Source: a virus (taxonomy: Duplodnaviria; Heunggongvirae; Uroviricota; Caudoviricetes). From it: DNA of 64,000 bases. Both the position numbers and the translations under genes were made by a program. Positions 16,101-58,724 of the stretch are shown in pieces (the stretch's first letter is position 1; each line of letters starts with the position of its first letter). Under the pieces are notes generated by a model. That model did no database searches and was not told the DNA's origin. It saw only the letters and a list, made by a program, of their open reading frames with translations. Location of the stretch: IMG/VR virus record IMGVR_UViG_3300044568_003085, one strand, 5' to 3'.

Positions 16101-19002
16101 GAAAAATGCTATTGCTAGATTTCAAGAACATCCAGAACTATTAAAAAAATGGTATCAAGATAATACAGTAACAAAACCTAAACCAGAATGGTATGAAGAA
16201 CTTTCTGACTTGTATGAGCAACGTGCTGCATTATTTGGTGAAGACTTAGCTGTTACTGATTTAATTAAAGAACGTTCAGCAATACTTAGACCACACAAGG
16301 TAGCTGGTATATTACAATCTCAACATGTATCATCTGAAGAAATTATAGAACTTGAAGCAATTGATGCACAATTAGAATCTATATTTGAAGGAAAAGCAAA
16401 AGTTGATTTAAGTCCTGATCAATTGCAACAAAATGCAATTATCAAAGATCAGATAAATAGAATTTCTGCACCACAATTAACTGCATCATATCTTAGAACA
16501 AGAGATGGTAAAATTAAATCATTATACAATGCTAAAAAATTATTAGTTGCAGCAGAAATTGCATTAGAAAAAGCAGAAACAGCTAAAGATGCAGCATTAA
16601 TAAAAATTGCTACAGATACTGTAGTATTTTATAGTGGACAGTTTTCAAATGAAGAAACAATATTTGAAAAATGGTATAATGATTTTCATCAATTTGCATA
16701 TGAAAGTATTTTAGATAGTGAAGAAGACATTCATAAAAAAATGATTGCAAAGTCATTTAATTATCAAAAACTTCCAGCACCATCGGTTGCTGCACAGTAT
16801 AATGAAACAGTACCTCATCCAAAATATAAAATTAAAAAACTAAAAGAAAGTTCATATAATCCAGACTTTTTAAAATCACCAGATGGTATACCAATGCCAA
16901 AAGGAGTTTATCAAGATTCTGAGAAAGTTTATAAGATAGATCCATTAGTTGTTAAAACAAGTAATATAAATTCAAAATATCTTGGTCTAATGCGTGATCA
17001 AGAACTATTTGATTTTTATAATAAACTAACAACAATGTTTTTTGATTTGCAAACAAAAACTGATGGTAAAAAAATTGGATACAAAGTACCAGGTTTTTCT
17101 TCTACACTTATGCAAAACTTTTCAAGAGAAGGCGTAGTAGCAGGTTCTAAAAATAGATGGGATCAATATGTAGATAAAGCATGGGCAGAAGAAGGTGTAC
17201 AAGATAAAGTTGCAAATACATTTGGTGATAATGGTGCAAGAATTAGACAAAGATTTAATGATCAGTTACCAGAAAACATGCAATCTAAAGATGCAATTGG
17301 TTGTTTAATTAAATGGACAACTGAAGCACATTATAATATAGCAATGCAAGAAGTTGCACCTGTTGCAGATATCGCAATAAAAAGTATTGAACTTATGTCT
17401 GAAGATTTAAAAAAATCTATTCAGAATAAAGCAGTTGTAACAGATGCAGAAGGAAGACCTATCGATATGAACAAACGTCTTGCTGAAACTGAAAATGTAA
17501 TTTCTATTTTAAAGTTTGAAAGAAGAAAATTTATTAATGGTCAAGATCAGTCATTAACATATTTAAATAGAAAACTTACTAAAATAGTAAACAATGTTAT
17601 GTCATATACCAGTTTTATTAGAATTGGATTTGATGTTGTCAATCAAACTAAAAACTACGTTTCTGGTAATGTTCAAGCATTTATTGCAGCAGGTGGTTTA
17701 GTTGGTGATCACTATAGTCAAGAAGATTATATGTGGGCAAAAGGTCAAGTATATGGACTTGGTGAAAATGGATTTATAAAAAACTATTTTGGTGATTGGG
17801 GTAAAGTAAGTGACATAAGTAAATCTACTATGTTATATAGATTATTTAATCCAATGCAAAAAGATTATTTAAAATATGTAGATGAAATTACTGGTACATC
17901 TGGAAGAAGATTGTTATCAAAAGCAATGAATGTGCAAGAACTTGGTTACATGCTTCAAGATAAAGGTGATACAGAAATTGGTGTTACGGTTATGTACGCC
18001 ATTCTTAATCATTATAAATTTAAAACATTTGATATTGATGCAACTACAGGTGATAAAGTATATAGAAAAAATGCAGATGGAACTGATGAACTAGTTTCTG
18101 GTCACGAAGTTTACATTAAAGATACAGATGGTATTATAACCAAAAGAAATGATGTAGAATATACTCAAGAAGATGAAAACAGATTGCGTAATACAATCTA
18201 TTCAGAAATGCGTAAAGCTCAAGGTAACTACGCTAAAGCAGATGAAACAGCTTTTGAAGAAAATGTGGTTGGTAAACTTGTATTTTTCTTTAGAAAATAT
18301 GTAGTACCACAATTTTTAAATAGATTTGGTTATCTTAGACCAAACTATGAAGCAGGTGAAGTTGCTGTTGGTTATTGGCGTGCGTTTTTTACAGCATTAA
18401 AATATTATGGTCCACAAGAAGTTACAAAACATATGGTTCTTGGAAGCAAATATATGTTAAGAACAAATAAAAGTAAAATGAATGACTTTTATAGTAGAAA
18501 AGTTAATCAAACAAAACGTGATGCGTTAATGATGGCATTAACTACTATACTTGGCATGATGGCATTGATGTATGTAAGAAAAAAAGATGATGACGATGAA
18601 GAATTATCTTTATTAGAAGGTAACGCCATTAGATTATTATGGAGTGTTCAAGGTGAAACAACGTCAATGTTTCCTATTGGAGGTGGTTCTGCAGAATATA
18701 TCAAAAACTTTACAACTTTTACTGCATATGCAAGAGAGTTTCAAATGCTTACTAAAACAAGTGGTCACATGTTAAATACACTTTTAGCGTATACACTTAA
18801 TAGTGCTGAAGAACCAGATGACGATGACAGCAATTTTTATCATGAAATATGGAAAAATGCTTTTTATATGAGAAAAGCTGGTAGTTATGAGAAAGGTGAT
18901 CCAAAATTAATGAAGGATTTTTACGACTTAACAGGTATTAAAAACTTTAGAGATATGGCAGATCCTAACTGGAGAATTGATATTATGAAACGTAATCAAT
19001 AA
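13114..19002 (+). CDS. giant virion/cargo protein (1962 aa), function unknown. It has long coiled-coil-like stretches and a C-terminal hydrophobic segment flanked by poly-Asp.
   Basis: 5.9-kb ORF starting 4 nt after the 4014-aa ORF, co-oriented with it. No catalytic motif was recognised. Confidence 0.8.
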   Translation: MINCININDPLFKELVAAFGGNEALARTACTLNEDVIPSVDEAKTLIANMKIEETDERHVRHSDHFKLERTKDQYAVLQNISIFANDSQRAAIAKLVKNNQEYQEFLQNNIELRDAGKNALPSYSVTSFIGSSDFKGDQTKYEAFKLFGTFMHDVLEKAQIEALKTSSSIDVILSEEFFNKTYEKYLEKNPFYIEELSKEKIFDMAQRVAKHVSINRDEGYLILPEITLAGKDTNGNFIVGRLDLLLISNTGKVKVFDFKTKKVHNMVYNNAFNQQVVDKDRAFVNLAQTSYEVKDKPGMADSLKQTNLLRTAYDNWTLQLKAYENMLGQIGLVAEDSKIVALLYQTDANSKFLGDVLHIFQGNNYFDYATHAAVPGDDGWWKNDPIYSSQRIEQYRKAIDIEIPIGDKKIEEELEKNFQNLEFTPSEEENKKLIAAIKSEYDKQIKEVYDRINELKSQGKNTDAFYQLLDVRKNTLATFNTYIQKASNTDIAYEQNFFNILAATEEDLKKMSDLSENAIQSFRQGNLQFSNADVTQINESFSRSKGLNEVIDALKSIINDAEKNPENNISPSSPVRQKLYELEMSHLTIEANFREASVLALVKIAMTPGEYVYTKVNEQTREALEPKIAKLEKQLADMRLGKAANLFQSVRGSLISFMSKDFKQKLADRAGGGELGAQLLENIQRAELELIRLKEYASTGLEYNIDSLKKYVTAVTNPESQVYIGSQDIYNSTSIFSGLLLDKGIATASNSDLFLSSMVQMYKNGSAKAVHTIQNNLIALQFDKSRDSLLKRFTVDQLNDEISEWREHTVINKKTGEKETKRSLNFVKPFSEEYQNTFKEHSNKLKEYNTELRELEADANKKFNTPEYQSAKQTLLDKRKEKENYNTEHIKWLIENSSLPFNESFYKLQALMPEEIRNELQEKYFEIQQITYDVGKGNEVLLEDYDFERLKDLEDDIRVLREKAKKINPDYATYMEEFNNLFEFDTNYAFYERREKNAIARFQEHPELLKKWYQDNTVTKPKPEWYEELSDLYEQRAALFGEDLAVTDLIKERSAILRPHKVAGILQSQHVSSEEIIELEAIDAQLESIFEGKAKVDLSPDQLQQNAIIKDQINRISAPQLTASYLRTRDGKIKSLYNAKKLLVAAEIALEKAETAKDAALIKIATDTVVFYSGQFSNEETIFEKWYNDFHQFAYESILDSEEDIHKKMIAKSFNYQKLPAPSVAAQYNETVPHPKYKIKKLKESSYNPDFLKSPDGIPMPKGVYQDSEKVYKIDPLVVKTSNINSKYLGLMRDQELFDFYNKLTTMFFDLQTKTDGKKIGYKVPGFSSTLMQNFSREGVVAGSKNRWDQYVDKAWAEEGVQDKVANTFGDNGARIRQRFNDQLPENMQSKDAIGCLIKWTTEAHYNIAMQEVAPVADIAIKSIELMSEDLKKSIQNKAVVTDAEGRPIDMNKRLAETENVISILKFERRKFINGQDQSLTYLNRKLTKIVNNVMSYTSFIRIGFDVVNQTKNYVSGNVQAFIAAGGLVGDHYSQEDYMWAKGQVYGLGENGFIKNYFGDWGKVSDISKSTMLYRLFNPMQKDYLKYVDEITGTSGRRLLSKAMNVQELGYMLQDKGDTEIGVTVMYAILNHYKFKTFDIDATTGDKVYRKNADGTDELVSGHEVYIKDTDGIITKRNDVEYTQEDENRLRNTIYSEMRKAQGNYAKADETAFEENVVGKLVFFFRKYVVPQFLNRFGYLRPNYEAGEVAVGYWRAFFTALKYYGPQEVTKHMVLGSKYMLRTNKSKMNDFYSRKVNQTKRDALMMALTTILGMMALMYVRKKDDDDEELSLLEGNAIRLLWSVQGETTSMFPIGGGSAEYIKNFTTFTAYAREFQMLTKTSGHMLNTLLAYTLNSAEEPDDDDSNFYHEIWKNAFYMRKAGSYEKGDPKLMKDFYDLTGIKNFRDMADPNWRIDIMKRNQ

Positions 19003-19046: not shown

Positions 19047-22000
19047 ATGTCTAAGATACTTGTTCCATTCCATATTACAGATTACGCAGGATCGCCAGGT
19101 TCTGTGCAACCTGGTTTTAAAAAGTTTTATTTAAAAAATGGATATTTTAAACTTTTTGATGGTGCTGCTGTATCAGATGTAGTTTTAGATAGACCATTAG
19201 ATGGATTTGTACCATTAATTGGTACTATTACTCCTAGTGATACTGTATTAACAGCAATTGAAAAACTTCAATACATAATTACAAGTATTAGTGCAGGGAT
19301 GGTAGGTCCTGGTACACCAAATCGTGTAACCAAATTTGTCACACCTTCTACAATTGGTGATTCAATAATAGAAGACGATGGTGTTTCAGTTATAATAAAT
19401 AGAACTAGTGGTGCAACTTCAATGTATACACTAGATGTTAATGGAACTATATATTGTGATTTTGGTGCAAGAAATGTAATAAATGTTCCTTCTGCTATTA
19501 ACATTAATATGCCATATTATAATTTACCAGGAGGCGTACCAGATGCCTCAATTATAAATATAAATGGCAAAGGTCCACTTGCAAATGGATTTATGACAGG
19601 ATATCTTGTTAGTGTAAATGGTCCTGATAATATTGCATTTTTTGCAGATTTAAATGATTCATCTCTTACATCTAGAGGAGCAGAAATGACTAGTCATTTA
19701 TTACACACAGGATACTATATAAGATTAAAAAAAGAAATTGCATCTACTGTTTATAATGATGTATTTACTGTTAGTCATTTAGGAGACACAACAGCTAAAT
19801 CATTTATTAAAATTGGTGGTACATCTGTTCAATATTTAATGGCTGATGGTTCTACAAGTTCAGGTCCTTCACTAACAGGTTACGTTCCTTATACAGGAGC
19901 AACTACTACAGTTAATCTTGGTACTCAAAATTTTTATGCAGATGGTAGTACTGGATTTGGAACAACAACACCAATTGCAAAAGTACATATTGCAGGATCT
20001 ACTGGATTAGCATTTTCTACAAATACAAGTAATCATGGAATGGCATACATTAAAACTGTTGTCATGGACTCGCTTATTGCGCCTTATGAAGGTGATTTAA
20101 CATTTTCTGCTCCATATTGGGATGGTGTGTTGTATTCATTTCCAGAAAGAGTTCGTATTGCTGCACATACAGGATATCTTGGTATTAATCAAACACTTCC
20201 TACACAACATTTACATGTTGAAGGTAATTCAAGAATTACAGGTGCTGTATATGATTCTAATAATTTACCTGGTACAGTTGGACAATACTTATCTTCAACT
20301 ATAACAGGTACATCTTGGACATCTCTTCCTTCATTAACTGGTTTTGTTCCTACTTCAAGAACTTTATCTATAAATGGAACATTGTATGATCTTACGGCAG
20401 ATAGATCTTGGAGTGTTGGAACGGTTACATCAGTAGGAATTACTGTTCCTTCTGCCTTCAATGTTACGCCTAGTACAATAACTACATCAGGTACATTTGC
20501 AATAACTGGTGCAGGAACTGCCTCTCAATATGTTAGAGGAGATGGACAATTAGCAACTTTCCCAAGTGGTGGTGGTGGCGGTTCTTCTGTTAATTATTAT
20601 TTAAATGGTTCAATTGCTGCATCAGTTGCAACTTATAAGCAGATGTCAAACACTGCAATAATTGGAGCAGGTACTGATTTTAGTTTAACAGGTAATGGAT
20701 TAATTGCACAATTTTTAACAGACGCAGGTAATCCAAATAGACTTGAGATACCCGGAGGTGCTTGGAACTTTGAGATGTTTTTTTCAATGTCATCAAGCGG
20801 AGGGACTCCTAAATTTTACGTTGAACTTTTAAAATATGATGGTACTGTATTTACAAGTATTGCATCAAGCTCTCTAATACCTGAGACAATAAGTGGAGGA
20901 ACAATTATTGATTTATATTTAACATCTTTAGCAGTACCTACAACACCGTTATTAGTTACCGATAGACTTGCTATTAGAGTTTATATCATTAATAATTCAG
21001 GAGGCAGAACAGCAACATTACATACAGAGGATAGTCATTTATGTGAAATTATAACTACATTTTCAGGTGGCGTAACTTCATTAAATGGATTGACTACAAA
21101 TACACAATATTTAGCAGTAGGAACAAGCGGAACAGACTTTAATATTAATAGTTTAGTTGATACACATACATTCAATTTACCTAACGCAAGTACAACAGCA
21201 AGAGGAGTTGTTACAGTAAATAACCAATCTTTTTCAGGATTAAAAAACTTTACAGATAATATTATAGTAAACACAATTAGAATATGGAGAGGTAGTAACA
21301 ATAGCCTTACTAATATAGGAATTGGTTTAGATACATTAATTGATAACACAGGAAATCAAAATACAATACTCGGGTATCAATCTGTATCTTCTTTGCTATC
21401 AACTAGTAGTTTTACCACAGCTATTGGGCATCAATCTTTAAAAGATGTTACAGGAAACAACAATACTGCAGTTGGAAATACCTCGGGATTACTTATTACA
21501 ACAGGGTTTCAAAATACGTTTATTGGGGCACAAGCAGGTGGTATTGTTGGACAAAAAATTGATGCATCTAATAGTACAGCTATAGGCTATCAGGCAATTA
21601 CGACTAAAAATAATCAAATTGTTTTAGGTACTTCAAATACCGTTGAAACTATATTGCATGGTAATACATATATAGGAACACCATTACCTGTATTAGATGC
21701 AAAATTAACAGTGATCGGTAACGGATCTGATCCTTCTTTTAGAGTGTATAAAAACCCAACTGATGTTGTATCAGGTCTTCCAATATTCTCTGTTAGAGAA
21801 ACTGGTAGAGTAGGTATAGGTCAGACAGTAAGTCCTGACTTTAAAGTGGAGATTAGAGACTTTGAAGCAACTGATTATGCAGTTTCAAGTGCTACTTTAT
21901 TCACGCCTGTAAATGAAAATTCTGTAGCATTGTCTCTCCAAAACGCAGAACAAAATAGCGGTGGTGCTTGTTATCTTCAATTAGGACCAAGAAATTCTCA

Positions 22001-22331
22001 AAACTTTACAAATTATTGTTATATAGGAGCAGTATCTGTAGCAAGTGTTTATGCCCCAAGAATGGTGTTTGGTATGAGGCAAGGTTCTACTTCTTATGCT
22101 GAAAAAATGAGAATCAATACAGATGGTATTGGAATGTTTACAAATGGAAATCCTAACAGTAGTGCTGCTCTTGAAATAGCATCTACTATAAAAGGTTTTT
22201 TACCCCCTAGAATGACCAATGCTCAAAGAATTGCAATAGCAACACCTGCAATAGGATTAATGGTTTATTGCACAGATGCAACAGAAGGTTTATATATTAA
22301 CAAGTCCACAGGGTGGACATTTATAATTTAA
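19047..22331 (+). CDS. tail fibre / receptor-binding protein (1094 aa)
   Basis: Very Gly/Ser/Thr/Asn-rich with a poly-Gly run (GGGGGSS). It has repeated SLTG[YF]VP(Y/T) segments and a beta-rich composition typical of phage fibres. It lies directly downstream of the virion giants. Confidence 0.7.
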   Translation: MSKILVPFHITDYAGSPGSVQPGFKKFYLKNGYFKLFDGAAVSDVVLDRPLDGFVPLIGTITPSDTVLTAIEKLQYIITSISAGMVGPGTPNRVTKFVTPSTIGDSIIEDDGVSVIINRTSGATSMYTLDVNGTIYCDFGARNVINVPSAININMPYYNLPGGVPDASIININGKGPLANGFMTGYLVSVNGPDNIAFFADLNDSSLTSRGAEMTSHLLHTGYYIRLKKEIASTVYNDVFTVSHLGDTTAKSFIKIGGTSVQYLMADGSTSSGPSLTGYVPYTGATTTVNLGTQNFYADGSTGFGTTTPIAKVHIAGSTGLAFSTNTSNHGMAYIKTVVMDSLIAPYEGDLTFSAPYWDGVLYSFPERVRIAAHTGYLGINQTLPTQHLHVEGNSRITGAVYDSNNLPGTVGQYLSSTITGTSWTSLPSLTGFVPTSRTLSINGTLYDLTADRSWSVGTVTSVGITVPSAFNVTPSTITTSGTFAITGAGTASQYVRGDGQLATFPSGGGGGSSVNYYLNGSIAASVATYKQMSNTAIIGAGTDFSLTGNGLIAQFLTDAGNPNRLEIPGGAWNFEMFFSMSSSGGTPKFYVELLKYDGTVFTSIASSSLIPETISGGTIIDLYLTSLAVPTTPLLVTDRLAIRVYIINNSGGRTATLHTEDSHLCEIITTFSGGVTSLNGLTTNTQYLAVGTSGTDFNINSLVDTHTFNLPNASTTARGVVTVNNQSFSGLKNFTDNIIVNTIRIWRGSNNSLTNIGIGLDTLIDNTGNQNTILGYQSVSSLLSTSSFTTAIGHQSLKDVTGNNNTAVGNTSGLLITTGFQNTFIGAQAGGIVGQKIDASNSTAIGYQAITTKNNQIVLGTSNTVETILHGNTYIGTPLPVLDAKLTVIGNGSDPSFRVYKNPTDVVSGLPIFSVRETGRVGIGQTVSPDFKVEIRDFEATDYAVSSATLFTPVNENSVALSLQNAEQNSGGACYLQLGPRNSQNFTNYCYIGAVSVASVYAPRMVFGMRQGSTSYAEKMRINTDGIGMFTNGNPNSSAALEIASTIKGFLPPRMTNAQRIAIATPAIGLMVYCTDATEGLYINKSTGWTFII

Positions 22332-24196: not shown

Positions 24197-25246
24197 ATGA
24201 AAACATACGCAATTAACATTTTAACAGGATTAGTCTTGTTTTTTACACCTATTCAGGGTTTATTATTAGGAGTAGGAGCAATTATTATTCTTGATACATT
24301 CACAGGAATATTTAAATCTGTAAAAAGAGGAGGATGGAGTTCTATAAAAAGTAGGATATTATCAAATATAATTAGCAAAATGTTATTATATGAAATATGT
24401 ATAATTTTATTATATCCAATAGATTATTATTTACTAAACGAATTATTAATACGTTTAATTTCAATTCAGTTTTTTGCAACAAAATTGACATGTGTAATTT
24501 TAATATTTATTGAAGGAGTTTCAATTAAAGAAAACATAGAAGAAGCATTAAAAATAAATATTTGGCAACTATTAAGAAATGCAATTAAAAGAGCAAAAGA
24601 AGTAAAACAAGATCTTAAAACAATGCAAAAAATTAAACCATACATTACTACAATATTAATAGGAATACTACTTCTAATTATACTATTACAAAGATCCTGC
24701 ACAGGAACTAAAATAATAGATAATAAACCAGAGGTTACTGTAAAAATAGATACAGTATATAAACATATTACTCACACAGTAGTTAAGAATGTACCAGTAA
24801 AAACATTTGTTTATTTAAAACCAGATGGTCCACAATATACTTCAGGTGAAAATATTGACACATGTAGAGCTAGATTTGACTATCTTTTAAAACAACATGC
24901 AACTAGAAGAGTCTATCAAGATACATTAAAAATTGATAGTCTTGGTACAATTACAATAATTGATACTATTTGGTTAAATAAATTACATAAAAGAACATAT
25001 TTACAAGATATAAAAATACCTTTAGTTACAAAAACAGTTACAATTATAAAAGAAAAAGATCCTGTGCGTCAATTATACATAGGAGGTAATTTATTTGGTG
25101 ATCAGACTAGTTTACAACTAATTACACCTGGAATTTTATATAAAACAAAAAAAGATCATATATATCAAGTTAATGCAGGTATAAATTTTAATGGTACTAT
25201 CACATATGGTGTTGGTGCTTATTGGAAAATATCATTTAAAAAATAA
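24197..25246 (+). CDS. multi-pass membrane protein (349 aa), possibly a lysis-associated holin-like component
   Basis: Four or more predicted TM helices in the first ~120 aa, another TM near aa 150, then a soluble C-terminal domain. It sits directly upstream of the endolysin. Confidence 0.6.
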   Translation: MKTYAINILTGLVLFFTPIQGLLLGVGAIIILDTFTGIFKSVKRGGWSSIKSRILSNIISKMLLYEICIILLYPIDYYLLNELLIRLISIQFFATKLTCVILIFIEGVSIKENIEEALKINIWQLLRNAIKRAKEVKQDLKTMQKIKPYITTILIGILLLIILLQRSCTGTKIIDNKPEVTVKIDTVYKHITHTVVKNVPVKTFVYLKPDGPQYTSGENIDTCRARFDYLLKQHATRRVYQDTLKIDSLGTITIIDTIWLNKLHKRTYLQDIKIPLVTKTVTIIKEKDPVRQLYIGGNLFGDQTSLQLITPGILYKTKKDHIYQVNAGINFNGTITYGVGAYWKISFKK

Positions 25247-26087: not shown

Positions 26088-28115
26088 ATGATGAATCCAG
26101 TAATATATTATGATTTATCTGATGCAAATACACCAATTAGCACATTTATTTCTATATGGGATACCAGATTAGTATCTTCTGGTTCTTTCGAGGAAAATAA
26201 AATTTGTTTACCTTTAATATCTACTGGAATTTATGATTTTATAGTTGATTGGGGTGATGGTACTAATAACACAATTGTCACATGGGATGACGTTAATGTT
26301 ATTCATAGTTATGCAGTAGAAGGTGTTTATAAAATATTAATTACTGGTACAATTAATGGGTGGCAATTTGCTAATACAGGTGATAGATTAAAGTTGCTTA
26401 ATATATTACAATGGGGACCATTACAATTAGGTAGGGAAGGTGATTATTTTTATGGGTGTGAAAATTTAGTATTATCAAATGTTTCTGATGTATTAAACTT
26501 ATCAGAAACTACTTCTTTATATAGAGCATTTTATCAATGTATAAGTATTACAACAATTAACAACATTAATAAATGGAATACATCTACAATAACAACTTTA
26601 AACAGAACATTTGATAGATGTATTAATTTTAATGATAATATTGGTAATTGGGATACAAGTAATGTTACCATTATGGAAAATGTATTTACGTCTGCATCAA
26701 AATTTAATAATGGTGACAATGTTTCAATAGGAGAATGGAATACTTCTAAAGTTACTACATTTAAAAATATGTTTGGTAGTGATTCTTTTACAGGATACAT
26801 GATATTTAATCAATACATAGGTGATTGGGATACATCACTATGTAATGATATGTCATTTATGTTTTTTAGAAATCCAAAATTTAATCAAGATATTGGTACT
26901 AAAAAAGTTACTAAAAATGGAGTACCTTATCTTGCGTGGGATACAAAAAATGTGACAACCATGTTGTCAATGTTTTCGTCACAACCAACAGCTGGAATTA
27001 TGCCAATTGGTGAATTTAACAATGGAGGTTCAAATAGTATTGGTAATTGGAATACAATTTCATTAACAACTACTCGATTTATGTTTCATTCTCAATGCAA
27101 GTTTGATCAAAATATTGGAACAAAAGAAGTTACTTTTTCTGGATTTCCAACTTACAATGCATGGGATACACAAAATATAATTGATATGGCTGCAATGTTT
27201 TATGGTCATATTAGCTCAGATATTACAGGTATATTTAATAATAAAGGTAGCGGAAAAATAGCAAATTGGAATACTTCAAAAGTTACTACAATGTCTTCAA
27301 TGTTTTCTAGACAAAAATTATTTAATCAACCTATAGGTACTTCACAAGTTACAGTTGGAGCATCTACTTATTTAGCATGGGATACCATATTAGTAAACAG
27401 TATGAGTTTTATGTTTTTTAATAATTTAGATGCTATATTTAATAATGGAAATAGTTCTTCTATAGGTTTATGGGACACATCAAAAGTTACTACAATGGTG
27501 CAAATGTTTACAGGTGCTCCATTTTTTGATCAAAATATAGGACCACGTACAGTTACTGGATTACGAATAACTCCATATACATCATGGGATGTTGGTTTAG
27601 TAACAGATTTTAGTTTTATGTTTTATGCTTTTTCTTTTCCAAAAAACATGTCAATTTTTAATAATGGTGGAGGAACACCTCAAGGTGGATCTAATTCTAT
27701 TCAAAATTGGAATACTGTTTCTGCATTAAATATGAGATATATGTTTTATAATAACTTATCATTTAATAGACCAATTTCATGGAATACTTCTACAGTAACA
27801 AACATGACATCAATGTTTAGAAATGCAATTGGATTTAATAGACATTTGGGTACATTAAATGTTTCTGCTGTTACAACTTTTGGAAGTAGTACAGATTTAA
27901 CAGATCAATTTATGGCATTTAAAACTTTTAATAATTATTCATATGATAATTATGATAAAACGTTAATTGAATGGGCAACTAGACCAGTTTTACCAAATAA
28001 AATAATTTCTTTTGGCACAGCAAAATATTCTGCAGCAGCAATTGCAGCAAGATCAATACTAACATCTTCACCTAATAATTGGACAATTATTGACGGTGGA
28101 CAAATAATTTTATAA
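26088..28115 (+). CDS. DUF285 / BspA-like 26-residue-repeat protein (675 aa), a putative receptor-binding or host-adhesion protein
   Basis: At least 10 tandem copies of the ~26-aa repeat with consensus I.NW[DN]TS.VT.M..MF....FNQ.I (for example IGNWDTSNVTIMENVF, IGEWNTSKVTTFKNMF, IGLWDTSKVTTMVQMF). Confidence 0.75.
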   Translation: MMNPVIYYDLSDANTPISTFISIWDTRLVSSGSFEENKICLPLISTGIYDFIVDWGDGTNNTIVTWDDVNVIHSYAVEGVYKILITGTINGWQFANTGDRLKLLNILQWGPLQLGREGDYFYGCENLVLSNVSDVLNLSETTSLYRAFYQCISITTINNINKWNTSTITTLNRTFDRCINFNDNIGNWDTSNVTIMENVFTSASKFNNGDNVSIGEWNTSKVTTFKNMFGSDSFTGYMIFNQYIGDWDTSLCNDMSFMFFRNPKFNQDIGTKKVTKNGVPYLAWDTKNVTTMLSMFSSQPTAGIMPIGEFNNGGSNSIGNWNTISLTTTRFMFHSQCKFDQNIGTKEVTFSGFPTYNAWDTQNIIDMAAMFYGHISSDITGIFNNKGSGKIANWNTSKVTTMSSMFSRQKLFNQPIGTSQVTVGASTYLAWDTILVNSMSFMFFNNLDAIFNNGNSSSIGLWDTSKVTTMVQMFTGAPFFDQNIGPRTVTGLRITPYTSWDVGLVTDFSFMFYAFSFPKNMSIFNNGGGTPQGGSNSIQNWNTVSALNMRYMFYNNLSFNRPISWNTSTVTNMTSMFRNAIGFNRHLGTLNVSAVTTFGSSTDLTDQFMAFKTFNNYSYDNYDKTLIEWATRPVLPNKIISFGTAKYSAAAIAARSILTSSPNNWTIIDGGQIIL

Positions 28116-48079: not shown

Positions 48080-48278
48080 GTTTTTTTACATGTTCTGCAT
48101 CATCATTATTGATGAGGATTTTGCCATTTTCTTTTACGTATTCTACCAGTTTTTTACCTGGTTTTATTATACCCCTGTCAACATTGTATCTTAATGCAGA
48201 TTCAAAGTATCTTTGAGTAATTGAAGTAGGTTTTCTACTTAATCTAGTTTGTCGAATTCTTTTACGCATTGAAATCAA
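48003..48278 (-). CDS. hypothetical basic protein (91 aa)
   Basis: ORF. Confidence 0.45.
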   Translation of the reverse strand: MISMRKRIRQTRLSRKPTSITQRYFESALRYNVDRGIIKPGKKLVEYVKENGKILINNDDAEHVKKHVTQDFFNSNIKIQNFISYEQRGTY

Positions 48279-48741
48279 ATAAATCAGTAATTAACTTTGG
48301 TTTATAATCTATAACTTCAGCACATACATTTATATATCTCTTATCATCAAGAGAATTTTCATGTACATGACCATGAATATTATGAGAATATCTAAATTCC
48401 AGTTGAGATGGATGCACAGGACAATGAGTTAAAATAACCTTGTTCTTGTAATCAATCATACCAGAAACACTATTAACGTATTTTAGTAATTCTTTTACAT
48501 GTTGTCTTTCATCATGATTACCGAGAACAACATTAATAACGCCTTGTAATCTACTTACTATTTCATAGTTTTTCTTTTCCATAGTAATATCACCAAGAAG
48601 ATAAACTGCATCTTTTTTTGATACAATATTATTCCAGTTTTTTACAATAAGTTCATTCATCTCTTCTTCGCAAGAAAATCCACGTTTAATCGCCATATTT
48701 TTATGATGAAAATGTGGATCACTAAATACATAAGCACTCAT
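48262..48741 (-). CDS. calcineurin-like metallophosphoesterase (159 aa)
   Basis: Motifs DPHFHH (I), GDIT (II), GNHD (III), GHVHE (V). Confidence 0.8.
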   Translation of the reverse strand: MSAYVFSDPHFHHKNMAIKRGFSCEEEMNELIVKNWNNIVSKKDAVYLLGDITMEKKNYEIVSRLQGVINVVLGNHDERQHVKELLKYVNSVSGMIDYKNKVILTHCPVHPSQLEFRYSHNIHGHVHENSLDDKRYINVCAEVIDYKPKLITDLFDFNA

Positions 48742-50492: not shown

Positions 50493-50721
50493 CTTCTTTT
50501 ATTTTTTTCCATTCTTCATCAAGAGCTTGATCTGGTGTAAATACTTTATCACAATTTGCACAAATAAAAAATTCACCATCTTCAGTGTATTTAACTATTG
50601 GTTCTCCTTCTGTAATATATTTACTACAAGTTGTACAATTGCAAGCATTTTTAGTTTTGCAATATGGACATGTAAATGCACCCATCATAAGAATGCTATT
50701 GTATTTGTTTCTGGACTCCAA
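50476..50721 (-). CDS. zinc-ribbon protein (81 aa)
   Basis: CPYCKTKNACNCTTC ... CANCDKV gives four or more Cys pairs. Confidence 0.45.
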   Translation of the reverse strand: MESRNKYNSILMMGAFTCPYCKTKNACNCTTCSKYITEGEPIVKYTEDGEFFICANCDKVFTPDQALDEEWKKIKEDETNS

Positions 50722-51383
50722 TCAAAAGTGAATGGTCTTTGTGCATATGCGTATTGCTCATTAAGAACAGCAGCATTAAAAAAGTGTGTATCACCATCAA
50801 AATAGTAACCATATCCTGTATGAATATGACCACATAAGTGTATTTTAGGTTTTATTGCTTTTATTCTTGCAAGTAAATCTTGACAACCTAAGTTCTCAGA
50901 ACGTCTACCTTCAACACTATCTAATATACCATAAGCAGGTCCATGAGACATAAGAATATCTACATCATCTGGTATTGCATTAAGTACTGCAAGCATTTCT
51001 TCACTACCTCTGTGCACATTGAATGCCCAGTTATGAAACCATGGTGTATGTGGAAAACCATATATTTTAATAATGTCTTCAGTATCATTTTTGTCACTTA
51101 TTTTTACCCATTCTTGATTAAGACAAGTTATATTTTTATAAGAACTGACAAATTCAAATGCTTTTTCTGGATCTTCTTCAAATAACCAATCATGATTTCC
51201 AGGTATAAATACTTTATTGTCATATTGATCTTGGTCATTTAACCATTTGCAAAATTGTTTTACTTCATGATCATATCCCATTGATGAAATATCTCCTGAA
51301 TGTAATAATAAATCACCTCCTACTAAATCATTAGTAATTTGATTGTGTTTATTATGCGTATCACTTATTAATGTTATTCTCAT
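50685..51383 (-). CDS. calcineurin-like metallophosphoesterase (232 aa)
   Basis: Motifs ISDTHN (D-x-H), GDLLLHSGDI (GD), PGNHDW (GNHD), MSHGP, GHIHTG. Confidence 0.8.
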   Translation of the reverse strand: MRITLISDTHNKHNQITNDLVGGDLLLHSGDISSMGYDHEVKQFCKWLNDQDQYDNKVFIPGNHDWLFEEDPEKAFEFVSSYKNITCLNQEWVKISDKNDTEDIIKIYGFPHTPWFHNWAFNVHRGSEEMLAVLNAIPDDVDILMSHGPAYGILDSVEGRRSENLGCQDLLARIKAIKPKIHLCGHIHTGYGYYFDGDTHFFNAAVLNEQYAYAQRPFTFDWSPETNTIAFL

Positions 51384-53580: not shown

Positions 53581-53599
53581 TTTAATAAATTTATGATTA

Positions 53600-54057
53600 A
53601 TATTTTAGCACCCTCTTTCTTATAGTCTGTTCTTATGTACTATTGTTTCTGCAAATCAATTACGATTGTTAGATATAAGAGTAGGGTCACGTAGTTATTT
53701 GACGTGTTGAACTTATCAGTGTTGATCCTTTCACATAACTACTTGCTGAGAACTCATTTGTGTTGTGCAGTCCGCATCTTTATCTGCAGTTCTGATAGCT
53801 TATTTCATCTACCCACCTGTATTCCTTTCTCAAGGGAACAACACATCTACCATTACTGATAGTATCTTTAGAGGTGCTTGGCATCTCAAGGTATTCAATG
53901 TTTAACCTTTAGCTTCACACAGTTTATCAGATCTGGTGCTTTACACAGCTTAGCTATTGTTTGAGAGTTTATATCTTGCAACTCACAAGTGTTCCCTAAC
54001 ATCAGAGACCAATCTTACAAGTTTAAAGTGGATGTAAGACCACTATTAATTTTAAAG
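53600..54057. ncRNA. candidate structured non-coding RNA; ORF-free, GC-richer island of unknown class and strand
   Basis: About 460 bp with no ORF of 60 aa or more on any strand. Base composition is visibly GC-richer than the flanking genes. Long-range complementary segments exist, for example AGGGAACAACAC (53833-53844) with GTGTTCCCT (53989-53997), and a local hairpin CTTACA...TGTAAG (54014-54038). Confidence 0.3.
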
Positions 54058-54231
54058 AATGGTTTTTTCTATGTTCTTCAATTCATACTTTTGAATCGAT
54101 TGTAACACAAAAGTTTTCTTTCTTTCTTTGTCACATAATCTTGCTGCTTCTGCTTCTGCTTCTTCTAAAGTTTCCCATCTTTTTGATGGAGAACTCATAT
54201 TTTCAACATGAACCATAAAAAACTTATCCAT
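54058..54231 (-). CDS. small acidic ORF, 57 aa (MDKFFMVHVENMSSPSKRWETLEEAEAEAARLCDKERKK...), below the ORF-track cutoff
   Basis: ATG at 54231 overlaps the stop of the SPFH gene (ATGA-type junction). Confidence 0.3.
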
Positions 54232-54233
54232 AA

Positions 54234-55085
54234 TTATCTATTTAATAATATACCAGTTGTTCCAAATACATTATGTGAACCATATTCAGATGTACCATTA
54301 GTAGCTCTTATTCTAGCAGTTTCTGCTTTGTATAACTCTAACAATTTAGGTTGAGATAATATTTCTTTTGTTTTAGCATCATATTGTGCTGCTTCATAAT
54401 TACCTTTTGCTAATGCTACTTTCTTTAATGCGGTTTGTTCAGCTTGTTTAGTTTGAGATATAATAGTTGCTGTTTCCTGTAATACTGCAATTTTTCTCTC
54501 AATAGCTGCTTTATATGATTTAGGCAATTGCATTTTAAGTATAGCAATATTATTTAATGTAAATCCTTCCTTCTCTAAAGAAGCTGTTAAAGATCTTGTT
54601 ACATTACCTTCATAAATATTTCTATGTTGTAATAAACTATCTGATGCAAATGATACTGCATTATCTAATAATTCTTTTCTAACAATAGTTCTTACTCTTG
54701 AATTAATTAAATCTTCCATATCCACTCTATACTTAATAAATAACTCAGCTGCTCTTGCTCTTTGCAACTGTAAGTTAATAGATACATCTAATCCAAATGT
54801 GGCTCCATCCGCTGATGTTACATCAATATGTTCATCTGTTGGTGATTCTTCATTTGAATCTGCTGTCCATACCTTATGTTGTACTGATGTTGGATACATA
54901 AATACATCCTGTGTTGGTGGGAAGTAGAAAATAAATCCACTTGCCATTTCAATGTTGGGGACACCTTTATTGGTTCCAATCTGATCTACTACTAATGCTA
55001 CTTCTGCTGAATCTGCAATTTTACATGATCCTGCTAATCCTAGTACAACTAAAATTATTACTGCTGCTGTTAAAATTTTGTTCAT
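54234..55085 (-). CDS. SPFH / band-7 (stomatin-prohibitin-HflC-like) membrane-anchored protein
   Basis: N-terminal signal anchor (ILTAAVIILVVLGLAGS) followed by an SPFH-like core (EVALVVDQ..., AAELFIKYRVDMEDLINSRVRTIVRKEL, C-terminal coiled coil). 283 aa. Confidence 0.7.
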   Translation of the reverse strand: MNKILTAAVIILVVLGLAGSCKIADSAEVALVVDQIGTNKGVPNIEMASGFIFYFPPTQDVFMYPTSVQHKVWTADSNEESPTDEHIDVTSADGATFGLDVSINLQLQRARAAELFIKYRVDMEDLINSRVRTIVRKELLDNAVSFASDSLLQHRNIYEGNVTRSLTASLEKEGFTLNNIAILKMQLPKSYKAAIERKIAVLQETATIISQTKQAEQTALKKVALAKGNYEAAQYDAKTKEILSQPKLLELYKAETARIRATNGTSEYGSHNVFGTTGILLNR

Positions 55086-55088
55086 AAT

Positions 55089-55325
55089 CTAATTTTTGTT
55101 TAATTTGTTTTTAAAATAATTTATTGCACATTCTAATATTATCACACTATAATAGGATGATGAAAAAATTGTCAAAAGTAGTATTAATAAACCCAATACA
55201 AAGGTAAGTGTTGATGGTTGACTCATTAAATGCAAAGATACCATAACCATTCCTATTGCAGAAACAGTTATGATAAATATGCAAATTAACAATAACCAAA
55301 TGTTATTTTTAATTTTTGTAAACAT
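55089..55325 (-). CDS. small two-TM membrane protein (78 aa), possibly an NfeD-like partner of the SPFH protein
   Basis: Two hydrophobic helices. It sits immediately upstream of the SPFH gene on the same strand. Confidence 0.45.
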   Translation of the reverse strand: MFTKIKNNIWLLLICIFIITVSAIGMVMVSLHLMSQPSTLTFVLGLLILLLTIFSSSYYSVIILECAINYFKNKLNKN

Positions 55326-57181
55326 TAGAAAATCATTTTTTCTTTAATTAATTTATCTACTTTTTTTGATACATATGAAATCATATCATTAGGTAAATTT
55401 TCTATGTTTGTCATTTTAATAAAATAATCAAACATTTCTTCTGAAGGTACTTCTTCGTCAATTGCAATTTGAATCACTTGGAATCCTAATGCTTGTGCCA
55501 TAGTAACCTTTTTTCTAGTGTCATTGATAGACGCTTGACCATTATAACCATATGCAGCTGGTTGACCATCTGAAATAACAAATAACAATCCTGGATCAGC
55601 AGTTCTGTTTCTAACACGTTTGGCAACTGCATAAATTGCATCACCATCTCTGTTATTACTTCTTGCAGTAGCAGAACCTAACGCATAAGGATCCATGTTT
55701 GCACCTGGTTCACGATAAATTCTAATAGTACAATCACGTGTATTCTTTTCATCTGCAGTATGACCATAAATATACAGTTGAACATCAGGTTGCTTTTTGA
55801 ATACTTCATTGATAAAAATAGCAGCTTGACGTGCTTTTTTCATTCTATCTCCACAACCCATAGAACCAGATTCATCAATCAACACTGTTATGTTGATTTT
55901 ATTTGTGGTTACTTGACCAAATCTTTCGTAAATAGTTGGTACTCTTTGAATTGCTTCAGCAAGTTTATTAGTATCTAGTCTACCTGAACGCATAGATTTC
56001 ATAGAAAACTGATAATCTTTTGATTTACGTGAAAATAACTTTGCAAGAACTTGAGCTTTTGTACTATTGATTTTTGTCAAATCTTTTAAATACTTATCTT
56101 TATCAGAATCAGATTTCTTAAATACAACATTTCCATCAATAGATTCACCTTCTTTACTAAAATCATGACCTGGAGGCAAAGCTCTTTTTTCTTCCATATC
56201 ATCAGTAAAGTCATCAAAATCATCAGAAAACTCATCTGAATCATCACCATCAGGAGCATTCATCATTTTTTTCATCATCTCCTGTGCAAGATCATTCATT
56301 TCAGATTTAGTTGGCATTGGTGCTTTTCCACCTTTACCTTCTTCATCTCCTTCTTCATCTCCATCACCTTCACCATCTCCTTTTTCTTCTTCTTTTTTGT
56401 CTTCTGCAATTATGAACTTATTAATTACACCAGAAAGATATTGAGCTTGTTTATCACAATCCATTGATGTAAGTGGAAATCCATGTTTTTTCATATAACT
56501 TTCAATTTGAGAAAGAGGTTTTGCAAACTCATCTACTTCTTCTTCAGTTACATGTGCAGGGTATCTAAGAAATTTAGTAATAGTTTCAGTAAGTCTTTTA
56601 CCAGCATGTTCTTCTTCACCCAATGGTTCATATGTTTTATCATATTTATATTGTTTAAATTTTTGAACAAACTTGGAATAACCTGGAAATCTATCTGCTA
56701 ATCTTTTGTCAATTCTTTCAGTATTTAATATTGTAAACATTAAATCTCTGATAGTTGTTGTTGTTTGTGAACTACGAGCATTCATGGTACGCATGTACTC
56801 ACTTTTTGTCTGCAAGGTTGCAAGAGCTGCATTTTGAATTGCAGCACCGTAAAACGCATCTAAAAGCTCTACATCATGATTCATATAAGTACCATCTTCT
56901 GCACGTAACATACTCAAAGGAACTGGAACAGTTGTTTTATCATTTACTGCTCTAAGTTTATTTGAATGATCATATTTCACATCTTTTGGTACACCAATAA
57001 CTCTAAACATAGAACCAATCATTTTAGCTGCAGATCTTAAGTTTTGATTATCTCTTACAAAATAAGAAGAGTAACCTGTTCTACCAGAATCCCAGTCAAA
57101 TAACTTTTTACTTGGATCATAAAAAGAATAAGCATCTTCTTCTTTTCTTTTCCACCAGTCTTTTTTAAATTTTATACTCAT
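55325..57181 (-). CDS. von Willebrand factor A (vWA) domain protein with a central acidic low-complexity region; CobT-like
   Basis: MIDAS motif VLIDESGSMG (DxSxS) in the C-terminal domain. Acidic tract EEKGDGEGDGDEEGDEEG. Length 618 aa and domain order match phage/bacterial CobT-type proteins paired with MoxR/CobS ATPases. Confidence 0.8.
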   Translation of the reverse strand: MSIKFKKDWWKRKEEDAYSFYDPSKKLFDWDSGRTGYSSYFVRDNQNLRSAAKMIGSMFRVIGVPKDVKYDHSNKLRAVNDKTTVPVPLSMLRAEDGTYMNHDVELLDAFYGAAIQNAALATLQTKSEYMRTMNARSSQTTTTIRDLMFTILNTERIDKRLADRFPGYSKFVQKFKQYKYDKTYEPLGEEEHAGKRLTETITKFLRYPAHVTEEEVDEFAKPLSQIESYMKKHGFPLTSMDCDKQAQYLSGVINKFIIAEDKKEEEKGDGEGDGDEEGDEEGKGGKAPMPTKSEMNDLAQEMMKKMMNAPDGDDSDEFSDDFDDFTDDMEEKRALPPGHDFSKEGESIDGNVVFKKSDSDKDKYLKDLTKINSTKAQVLAKLFSRKSKDYQFSMKSMRSGRLDTNKLAEAIQRVPTIYERFGQVTTNKINITVLIDESGSMGCGDRMKKARQAAIFINEVFKKQPDVQLYIYGHTADEKNTRDCTIRIYREPGANMDPYALGSATARSNNRDGDAIYAVAKRVRNRTADPGLLFVISDGQPAAYGYNGQASINDTRKKVTMAQALGFQVIQIAIDEEVPSEEMFDYFIKMTNIENLPNDMISYVSKKVDKLIKEKMIF

Positions 57182-57393
57182 AATTTCTTATTTAACTTGT
57201 CAATAATTTTTTCAGTAATTTGTTTTTTCTTTGCACGTAACTCTCCCCAATCATTATTATGTCTATTCCACATGTTATATACATATTCAGGAATATCTTT
57301 TATTGAAATAAGTCTTTGTTTGAATTTTGCATTGAATGTATGCTTAAAAGTTTTACCCATAATATTTGAGTTAATGCATGAGTTTCCCATCAC
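57178..57393 (-). CDS. hypothetical basic protein (71 aa)
   Basis: ORF between the ATPase and the vWA gene, overlapping the vWA start by 4 nt. Confidence 0.4.
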   Translation of the reverse strand: MMGNSCINSNIMGKTFKHTFNAKFKQRLISIKDIPEYVYNMWNRHNNDWGELRAKKKQITEKIIDKLNKKL

Positions 57394-57449
57394 TAAGTGT
57401 CATTTGTATACTTAATGACGGGTTTCTCATACAAGATTGCTTGATCCTA

Positions 57450-58724
57450 TTAAAACGCAGCAATAATTGATAATACTTTACTACGTTCAGATGTACCAAT
57501 ACCATCTTCAAAAAGAGGCATGATAACACTTTGAATCGCACTAGTAAGTTCGAATCCATCTACAATTAATCCAGCAGTTTGTAAAGTATGTCTTACTGAA
57601 ACTGGAGTAGATAATTCTTGGTCTTTATATTGTTTTCTAATTTCATTAGAAACTTTAACAATTGCTTCTGCAGATTTTTCATCAACACCTGTACGAATCA
57701 TTAAGATATTAATCTCATCTGCTTCTTGAGGATATCCTAATTCAATAGGAAAGAATCTATCTAACAATGCTCTATCTATAGCGTTAGTACCAGAGTACTC
57801 AGAACCTAGATTAGCAGTTGCAAAAAACACAGTTTCAGGATTAACCTGAACTTGTCTATCGCATTCTTCACACGCAACATCTACTGGTAAATATCTTCTA
57901 CTATCCAAACAAGGAAACAAGATATTATTTGCAGCTAAAGGTGCTCTGTTTAACTCGTCAAGAAGTACAATACCTCCTGATTTAATATGTCCAACAAAAG
58001 GTGCAAATTCAAATTCTGAATGACCTTCTTTACCAATTCTGTGAACACCTAGTAATGCTGACTGTGCATCTTGAACAGTACCCATGTCTTGTATATACAA
58101 TGGTTTTGCCATTGCTTTAGCAAGGTGATTTAATAATTCTGTTTTACCAGAACCAGTTGGTCCCATAAGTAAAGTATTTTCACCTCTCAACACATTTCTC
58201 ACAAGTAAGTACCAGATATCTGGTTCAATGTGAAAACCACAGTCTTCTTTGGTAGGCACTGGATAATTTGCAGCAATAGTACGCTTCAAGTTAGTTCCAG
58301 CAGGTAATACTTCACCAGCAACAGGTAATGCAAATTTTGCATCCCAGTCAAATGTGTAACCATATGGTTCATACTTAGTTGCCATTTCTTTGGCTTTATC
58401 TACACCATAAGAAGAATTGTCAATCATGTAATCAATTAAGTGATCTACCATTGGAATTCCAGATGGATCACTTATTGGAAACACGTCATTTTCATAATAC
58501 ATGGCAGTGATACCATCTTTACGAATATGTAAATGATCAGTTTCAGGAAAATCATAACCACTTGCACAAAATACAGTACCTAATGGGTACTTTACAATGT
58601 CTGCAATTGGTGCTGTTATTTTTATATCTTTTACATTAATAGGCAAACCTTTTTCAAAAGATTGACCAGCTAATGTTTCTACTGCAAAGGATGTACCTTC
58701 TAATAATGCTTTAAATAGGATCAT
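57450..58724 (-). CDS. MoxR-family AAA+ ATPase (AAA_5; CobS-like) with a ~170-aa N-terminal extension
   Basis: Walker A LLMGPTGSGKTEL, Walker B plus the MoxR signature VLLDELNRAPLAANNILFPCLD (DE[IL]NRA), sensor and arginine-finger region ATANLG...AIDRALLDRF. Confidence 0.8.
   Translation of the reverse strand: MILFKALLEGTSFAVETLAGQSFEKGLPINVKDIKITAPIADIVKYPLGTVFCASGYDFPETDHLHIRKDGITAMYYENDVFPISDPSGIPMVDHLIDYMIDNSSYGVDKAKEMATKYEPYGYTFDWDAKFALPVAGEVLPAGTNLKRTIAANYPVPTKEDCGFHIEPDIWYLLVRNVLRGENTLLMGPTGSGKTELLNHLAKAMAKPLYIQDMGTVQDAQSALLGVHRIGKEGHSEFEFAPFVGHIKSGGIVLLDELNRAPLAANNILFPCLDSRRYLPVDVACEECDRQVQVNPETVFFATANLGSEYSGTNAIDRALLDRFFPIELGYPQEADEINILMIRTGVDEKSAEAIVKVSNEIRKQYKDQELSTPVSVRHTLQTAGLIVDGFELTSAIQSVIMPLFEDGIGTSERSKVLSIIAAF

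Follow-up and report, generated by a model that had tools for sequence, protein, structure and literature searches.

A conserved MoxR-vWA gene pair of a large uncultured phage group and the probably independent SPFH cassette that adjoins it

We analyzed a cluster of minus-strand genes in a 64,000-nt stretch of viral DNA (Caudoviricetes; IMG/VR record IMGVR_UViG_3300044568_003085; hereinafter the window), which code, in the direction of transcription, for a MoxR-type AAA+ ATPase, a 71-amino acid (aa) protein, a CobT-like protein with a vWA domain, a small protein with two transmembrane (TM) segments, and a membrane-anchored SPFH/Band-7 protein. An earlier note, made from the letters alone, had proposed that the ATPase, vWA, two-TM, and SPFH genes constitute a single membrane-associated remodeling or anti-defense system in an early/replication operon. 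All the open reading frames (ORFs) that it had assigned to the cluster are present on the minus strand, at the coordinates given below, and its placement of them is likewise correct: the ATPase, vWA, two-TM, and SPFH genes lie inside a leftward minus-strand operon that extends from ~63.6 kb down to 28.5 kb and encodes a DNA polymerase, a primase, a DnaB-like helicase, a Sak4-like annealing protein, an exonuclease, and a second helicase. The window has a G+C content of ~29%; megablast searches with the cluster region against GenBank phages returned 0 matches, and the window phage therefore has no close cultured relative.

The ATPase gene (57450..58724, minus strand, as are all features of the cluster) encodes a 424-aa protein, in which the regions matching the Pfam models AAA_5 (65.8 bits; cut-off 22) and CbbQ_C, the lid (37.6 bits; cut-off 20.6), are preceded by a family-specific N-terminal extension; both models were matched by 30 of 30 members of the ATPase family. 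A multiple alignment of these 30 sequences showed as invariant G188, G191, G193, K194, and T195 of the Walker A motif (G188-T195, GPTGSGKT; 58140..58163), the Walker B residues D256-E257 in LLDELNRA (57954..57959), and T303-A304-N305, R318, R323, and R378, which we assign by inspection to the probable sensor 1, arginine finger, and sensor 2 positions. A profile of the 30-member family, compared with solved structures, recovered the AAA modules of midasin (2e-56), NorQ (4e-25), and CbbQ (1e-20), as against a weak and partial match to CobS (1.3e-7) that is confined to profile positions 291-388. None of the CobS models of NCBIfam was matched by the ATPase, whose top NCBIfam score (GvpN, 72.6 bits) lies below the cut-off of 266.8, and the Pfam domain CobS_N was matched by none of the 30 family members. 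By these comparisons, the ATPase is of the NorQ/CbbQ/midasin type rather than a CobS. Its N-terminal extension (aa 1-172; 58209..58724) is predicted by a structure model (pLDDT 80) to comprise a β-rich part (aa 1-77) followed by helices; a fold search with this model found no convincing structural neighbor, and no relatives were detectable in the PDB or Pfam. Both the DELNRA signature and an extension of ~170 aa had been read by the earlier note from the single sequence; both are confirmed, and the extension is conserved across the family. Separately, we observed that the match to the ATPase spans ~1600 nt in three related loci (L066, L067, and L068; positions 10001-11598 in the first two) versus the usual ~1275 nt, and that the database homolog P0068 is 520 aa long; this span and this length together suggest an insertion of ~100 aa inside the ATPase gene, possibly an intein or an inserted domain.

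The partner gene (55325..57181) encodes a 618-aa CobT-like vWA adaptor protein, which can be divided into an N-terminal domain (aa 1-258; 56408..57181), an acidic low-complexity linker read from the sequence (~aa 262-345; 56147..56398) that aligns with the acidic linker of CobT, a short and most conserved segment (aa 385-420, KSKDYQFSMKSMRSGRLDTNKLAEAIQRVPTIYER; 55922..56029), and the C-terminal vWA domain (aa 430-618; 55328..55894). In the last of these, the MIDAS residues (metal-ion-dependent adhesion site) are D436, S438, S440, T475, and D538; the DESGSMG motif occupies positions 436-442, and D436, S438, S440, and D538 are invariant in 27 homologs. The acidic tract and C-terminal vWA/MIDAS domain recognized earlier are both present. 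The conserved segment, in which M397, R398, G400, L402, D403, K406, E409, and A410 are invariant in the vWA family, lies just ahead of the first vWA strand and aligns with the shaft-bearing region Q373-R413 of CobT. A cryo-EM preprint on CobST describes the CobT shaft as inserted into the pore of the CobS ring and the CobT N-terminal domain as bound to the small subdomain of the CobS ATPase (bioRxiv 10.64898/2026.07.21.739949); the segment is thus a putative shaft for the pore of the window ATPase. Pfam CobT_C was matched by 27 of 27 vWA family members, with the window protein itself scoring 21.7 bits against a cut-off of 21, and the family profile aligned with solved CobT (9uka_G; E=3.3e-13) over residues 236-614, a match that takes in the acidic linker, the shaft region, and what follows up to the C-terminus. 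CobT is the best PDB relative of the vWA protein, and NorD the second (E=2.8e-5).

These likenesses bear on the hypothesis published for viral cobST (PMC8651126), by which the pair would be an auxiliary metabolic one, with a viral CobS/CobT docking onto the CobN of the host and raising cobalamin synthesis. Beyond the universal CobT_C matches and the structural affinity to CobT, the adaptor shares with CobT of the aerobic cobaltochelatase CobS-CobT (PDB 9uka and related; bioRxiv 10.64898/2026.07.21.739949) its whole layout, namely an N-domain followed by a disordered acidic linker, then a shaft and a MIDAS-bearing vWA domain, along with a similar total length, and the PHROG neighbors of the pair are annotated as cobS/cobT. 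However, the vWA protein matched neither the CobT N-terminal domain of Pfam nor any curated CobT model of NCBIfam, the ATPase is weakly CobS-like, as noted above, and no cobN was in evidence among the window ORFs covered by a non-exhaustive scan. On such sequence criteria, neither protein of the pair qualifies as a bona fide CobS or CobT; the tight grouping with the cobaltochelatase proteins that, by the earlier note, would speak against its proposal is not seen, in view of the lack of NCBIfam CobS/CobT matches and the much closer affinity of the ATPase to NorQ, CbbQ, and midasin.

An exhaustive profile search with the N-terminal domain of the vWA protein returned 215 cluster representatives, almost all of them 570-790 aa long with the domain at their N-terminus, and 135 full-length ones were aligned. 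An HExxH motif (typically HEGCH or HEAAH) is present in 93 of these 135 distant relatives at the place where the window protein has I115-Q-N-A-A, and the HExxH-bearing proteins have EDERIE where the window has NTERID; the motif is kept in distant relatives and lost in the close relatives of the window. The HExxH-bearing relatives retain the CobT_C vWA domain, and in both genomic contexts that we checked (L114 and the cultured Bacteroides phage BS162P1) a gene for an AAA_5 ATPase of 400-417 aa lies directly upstream of the HExxH-type vWA gene. In BS162P1, this pair with the active motif corresponds to genes 76 and 77, found 2.5 kb downstream of the DNA polymerase gene, and no SPFH gene was found near it. 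Judging from the alignment, the N-terminal domain would descend from a zinc-metallopeptidase-like domain, of which the window protein carries an inactivated version that probably can bind but not cleave; since HExxH has disappeared from the clade of the window, the conserved job of the domain would be binding.

Pairs of this general kind have been reported before: a MoxR ATPase with a metallopeptidase-vWA partner was described in jumbo phages (Iyer et al. 2021, PMC7824862), viral cobT genes often carry a peptidase annotation, and the viral cobST cluster is widespread among tailed viruses (Liu et al. 2021, PMC8651126). The window pair fits these already described units in being a two-gene phage unit with an AAA+ ATPase gene directly upstream of that for a ~600-700-aa partner, and in the layout of this partner, with its putatively peptidase-like N-domain, acidic linker, and C-terminal CobT_C-type vWA domain with MIDAS. 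It is a variant of them, in which the peptidase-like domain is inactivated and the ATPase extended: as compared with the published descriptions, the window clade has IQNAA in place of HExxH, the ~170-aa ATPase extension, and an ATPase closer to NorQ/CbbQ than to CobS.

To place the pair in its phage group, we took as relatives 67 viral-contig loci with ATPase homologs of 53-94% identity, several of them on contigs of 110-136 kb. In each of the 58 loci where both genes could be scored, the ATPase gene adjoins the vWA gene (median gap 87 nt), as it also does, further afield, in L001, L114, and BS162P1; in addition, a vWA homolog 100% identical to that of the window occurs on a 120,137-bp contig. 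The two genes are a core pair of a large uncultured phage group with contigs of ~120 kb, and the pairing of a MoxR-type ATPase with a CobT-like vWA protein, as the earlier note had it, is supported. The 71-aa ORF between them (GTG start; 57178..57393) is a lineage-specific filler with homologs in L002 and L006 only, and scans of the family libraries, including NCBIfam, gave no family match for it. The gap between the ATPase and vWA genes measures ~1.1 kb in L002, the closest fragment-level relative (~2628-3765), 268 nt in the window, and ~87 nt elsewhere; by this variation, the junction is another place that accepts insertions, the 71-aa ORF of the window being one. The conserved upstream genes g183, g105, and g181 are syntenic with the pair only in this phage group, and given their absence beside the pairs of L001, L114, and BS162P1, we set them aside as partners and took their position as ordinary synteny. 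In many relatives, a conserved protein of ~285 aa with a radical-SAM-like CxxxCxxC motif (CLFDCTYC; L019, 5429-6286; equivalents of 285-298 aa in, e.g., L026, L039-L043, and L046) is encoded just downstream of the vWA gene or a few genes further; tblastn found no homolog of it in the window.

Downstream of the vWA gene, the SPFH gene (54234..55085) encodes a 283-aa protein that matches Pfam Band_7 (64.6 bits; cut-off 23.6) and phrog_200 (8e-39), with prohibitins 1 and 2 as its closest PDB relatives and an N-terminus made up of hydrophobic residues 1-19 followed by Cys21. It is preceded by the gene for its 78-aa partner (55089..55325), which has two hydrophobic/TM segments within residues 1-51 and whose start codon overlaps the stop codon of the vWA gene by 1 nt. 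In all 10 relatives that carry an SPFH gene, this is found directly behind the vWA gene, after a two-TM ORF of 80-85 aa; in 45 loci with the SPFH type of the window, a small two-TM ORF precedes SPFH in 28 and another membrane protein does so in 14 more. Because the two-TM ORF precedes SPFH wherever the latter is present in relatives, the two form a unit, though an accessory one. SPFH genes are common accessory genes of phages: 353 phage records of GenBank contain a homolog, among them those of Kayvirus (MbpS) and of Burkholderia, crAss-like, and Lak phages. Like these phage SPFH genes and the bacterial NfeD-SPFH operons (e.g., YbbJ-QmcA), the window has a small membrane-protein gene just upstream of SPFH, overlapping or abutting; however, the 78-aa partner did not match NfeD in Pfam and offers no room for the C-terminal β-barrel domain of NfeD. 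The earlier note was accordingly right about an SPFH protein with a small membrane partner, while its 'NfeD-like' label for the latter, drawn from gene order, has no sequence support.

We then asked how far the SPFH cassette is coupled to the ATPase-vWA pair, using relatives with at least 1200 nt available downstream of the vWA gene (n=52); SPFH was sought near their pairs by tblastn and an iterated profile, with absence scored within up to 10 kb on each side, and the viral collection was scanned for SPFH types with exact peptide patterns, whose counts are not exhaustive. The cassette occurs in 10 of these 52 relatives, and the other 42 have the ATPase-vWA pair without SPFH. In a neighbor-joining tree built from the ATPase, nine SPFH carriers, namely those whose ATPase could be scored, fall into two sister subclades, and all basal clades are without SPFH; L058, the remaining carrier, found no place in this tree, but by its ATPase identity (91%) it is near the window. 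The SPFH protein of the window is 29-33% identical to those of its relatives, including L058, the vWA protein of which is 77% identical to that of the window, as against 74-95% identity to SPFH proteins on other viral contigs of ~4 to 322 kb. At 44 of 45 loci with the window-type SPFH, tblastn and the family profiles found neither the ATPase nor the vWA gene in the available sequence (at most 10 kb to either side); the sole locus with a vWA gene is a 4-kb fragment from a close relative of the window phage. The nucleotide identity with these SPFH donors (80-89%) is confined to the SPFH ORF. The SPFH type of the relatives behaves similarly: it was found on 80 viral contigs, of which 9, all from this phage group, have a vWA gene within 4 kb and 71 have none.

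Since the SPFH protein of the window is 74-95% identical to proteins encoded elsewhere without the pair and only ~30% identical to those of its own relatives, the cassette is best understood as a mobile accessory element. The gene content just downstream of the vWA gene also differs between relatives, which suggests a region of accessory-gene flux. The earlier note had itself named a co-occurrence analysis across related phages as the check on its proposal and a lack of co-conservation as the outcome that would speak against it; the analysis, now run, finds that the SPFH and MoxR-vWA genes are not co-conserved, and a four-gene SPFH/two-TM/vWA/ATPase system is not borne out. For the ATPase, PADLOC returned generic P-loop matches only, and for the SPFH, two-TM, and vWA proteins it returned none; on this result we rejected assignment of the cluster to a known defense system.

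Consequently, we consider it likely that the locus is composed of two independent, adjoining modules, a core ATPase-vWA remodeling pair and a horizontally exchanged two-TM/SPFH cassette. The pair, transcribed with the early/replication genes, would most likely act like CobS-CobT, NorQ-NorD, CbbQ-CbbO, and midasin. In particular, the ATPase would assemble into a hexameric ring, onto which the vWA adaptor would dock with its pre-vWA shaft (aa 385-420) entering the pore; the MIDAS site of the adaptor would hold a client protein by one of its acidic residues, and a pull on the adaptor, driven by ATP hydrolysis, would remodel or mature this client. What we observed is the gene content, the motifs, the family affinities, and how the genes are conserved and co-occur; ring formation, shaft insertion, and client remodeling are inferred by homology to these machines. 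The ATPase core and its CbbQ_C lid strongly match those of NorQ, CbbQ, and midasin, and NorD ranks second among the solved relatives found for the vWA protein. The same mode of action, in which a ring remodels a MIDAS-held client, may be expected; unlike in these systems, the N-terminal domains of both window proteins are different, and the genes belong to a phage early operon rather than to a nitric-oxide reductase or Rubisco operon. Its substrate, or client, is probably a protein other than CobN, the enzyme of cobalt insertion. The two-TM and SPFH proteins, for their part, may form a prohibitin-like scaffold in the host membrane, with their cassette having presumably been inserted into the variable stretch directly downstream of the vWA gene.

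Several points weigh against this two-module explanation. Two SPFH types that are only ~30% identical occupy exactly one slot behind the vWA gene, and the 1-nt overlap of the vWA stop and two-TM start codons is found both in the window and in L058; pure chance, an insertion hot spot, or cassette replacement is a plausible account of the shared slot. The absence of SPFH pertains to flanks of up to 10 kb, and the contigs of the SPFH-less relatives were not among the hits of the non-exhaustive SPFH scans. The peptidase ancestry of the N-terminal domain is argued from sequence alignment, since a PDB fold search with its AlphaFold2 (AF2) model (pLDDT 80; pTM 0.81) returned no match. Finally, the ring, the inserted shaft, and the client are put forward from homology.

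Among the other explanations, one holds the MoxR-vWA pair to be a virion-assembly chaperone that helps assemble or process structural proteins, a role that has been suggested in jumbo phages and demonstrated in the tail development of the Acidianus two-tailed virus; this has precedent in the literature (PMC7824862), and the very large ORFs of the structural region of the phage (see below) might need such chaperoning. However, the pair is encoded in the leftward early operon, closer to the promoter than the DNA polymerase, primase, and helicase genes, and on the strand opposite to the probable structural ORFs, and it adjoins the DNA polymerase gene in BS162P1 too; this early/replication position in both phages argues, if not decisively, against a role in virion assembly. 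Moreover, the peptidase motif that the processing idea requires has been lost in the window clade, and we think this explanation unlikely. We are equally doubtful of another proposal, according to which the ATPase and the pseudo-peptidase-vWA protein would be an early, phage-specific machine that remodels some host protein located at the membrane or close to it, in takeover or counter-defense, rather than a cobalamin or virion-assembly factor. On this view, two unrelated SPFH cassettes would have been captured repeatedly behind the vWA gene not simply because the site is a hot spot for insertion but because they are loosely associated with the machine in function, the scaffold serving to concentrate it or its client. 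The single membrane-associated remodeling or anti-defense system proposed at the outset, in which the MoxR-vWA machinery would act on or with the SPFH scaffold, would account for the tight packing of the genes, including the codon overlap shared with L058, for the position of the cassette directly behind the vWA gene in 10 of 10 carriers, and for the one slot that holds two divergent SPFH types; nevertheless, with the pair lacking SPFH in 42 of 52 relatives and in the distant L001, L114, and BS162P1, the vWA gene missing at 44 of 45 loci with the SPFH type of the window and at 71 of 80 with the other type, and PADLOC showing nothing past generic P-loop similarity, we regard it as very improbable. 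The cobalamin role is the least probable of all, as the NorQ/CbbQ affinity of the ATPase, the lack of an NCBIfam CobS/CobT match, and the presence of a homologous pair in a Bacteroides phage all argue against cobalt chelation. Human-gut Bacteroides largely salvage corrinoids instead of making them by the aerobic CobN route.

Beyond the cluster, the run of leftward genes that includes it ends with a 59-aa ORF (54052..54231, minus strand), which is kept only in L089, a fragment from a close relative (92%), and is followed by a 470-bp non-coding gap (53581-54051) that looks higher in G+C than its flanks. No structured RNA was found in this gap, which had no Rfam match and a folding z-score of 0.03, and we therefore take it to be ordinary intergenic DNA; it probably marks a transcription-unit boundary. 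Scans for consensus promoters and terminators were uninformative, with 40 promoter-like sites found versus 50.6 expected. The early operon also contains two metallophosphoesterase-family genes on the minus strand (50685-51383, phrog_1649; 48262-48741, phrog_547) that are no more than 3 kb apart. On the plus strand, three giant ORFs follow one another (1066-13110, 4014 aa; 13114-19002, 1962 aa; 19047-22331, 1094 aa), none of which has a Pfam match at E<=1e-4; they probably code for structural or tail-fiber proteins, and a protein of 4014 aa is unusual in a phage of ~120 kb. The same strand encodes a 675-aa protein with seven DUF285 repeats (26088-28115; E=1.8e-85) and a 349-aa protein with an N-terminal holin domain (24197-25246; Phage_holin_4_1), which is unusually long for a holin.

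For the scanning of genomes more generally, the lesson of this locus is that where genes border on a variable region, their adjacency says little in favor of a system, and separating the ATPase-vWA pair from the neighboring SPFH cassette avoids a misleading annotation. Few phage genes without an experimentally known role are as widespread as the MoxR-vWA ('cobST-like') pairs, and BS162P1, with its genes 76 and 77, is a cultured phage in which the function of the pair can be tested. For the family itself, the N-domain of the adaptor would belong to a metallopeptidase-like family, the catalytic motif of which was lost by decay in a single large clade from freshwater, which points to a binding role, rather than proteolysis, as the function that has been conserved.

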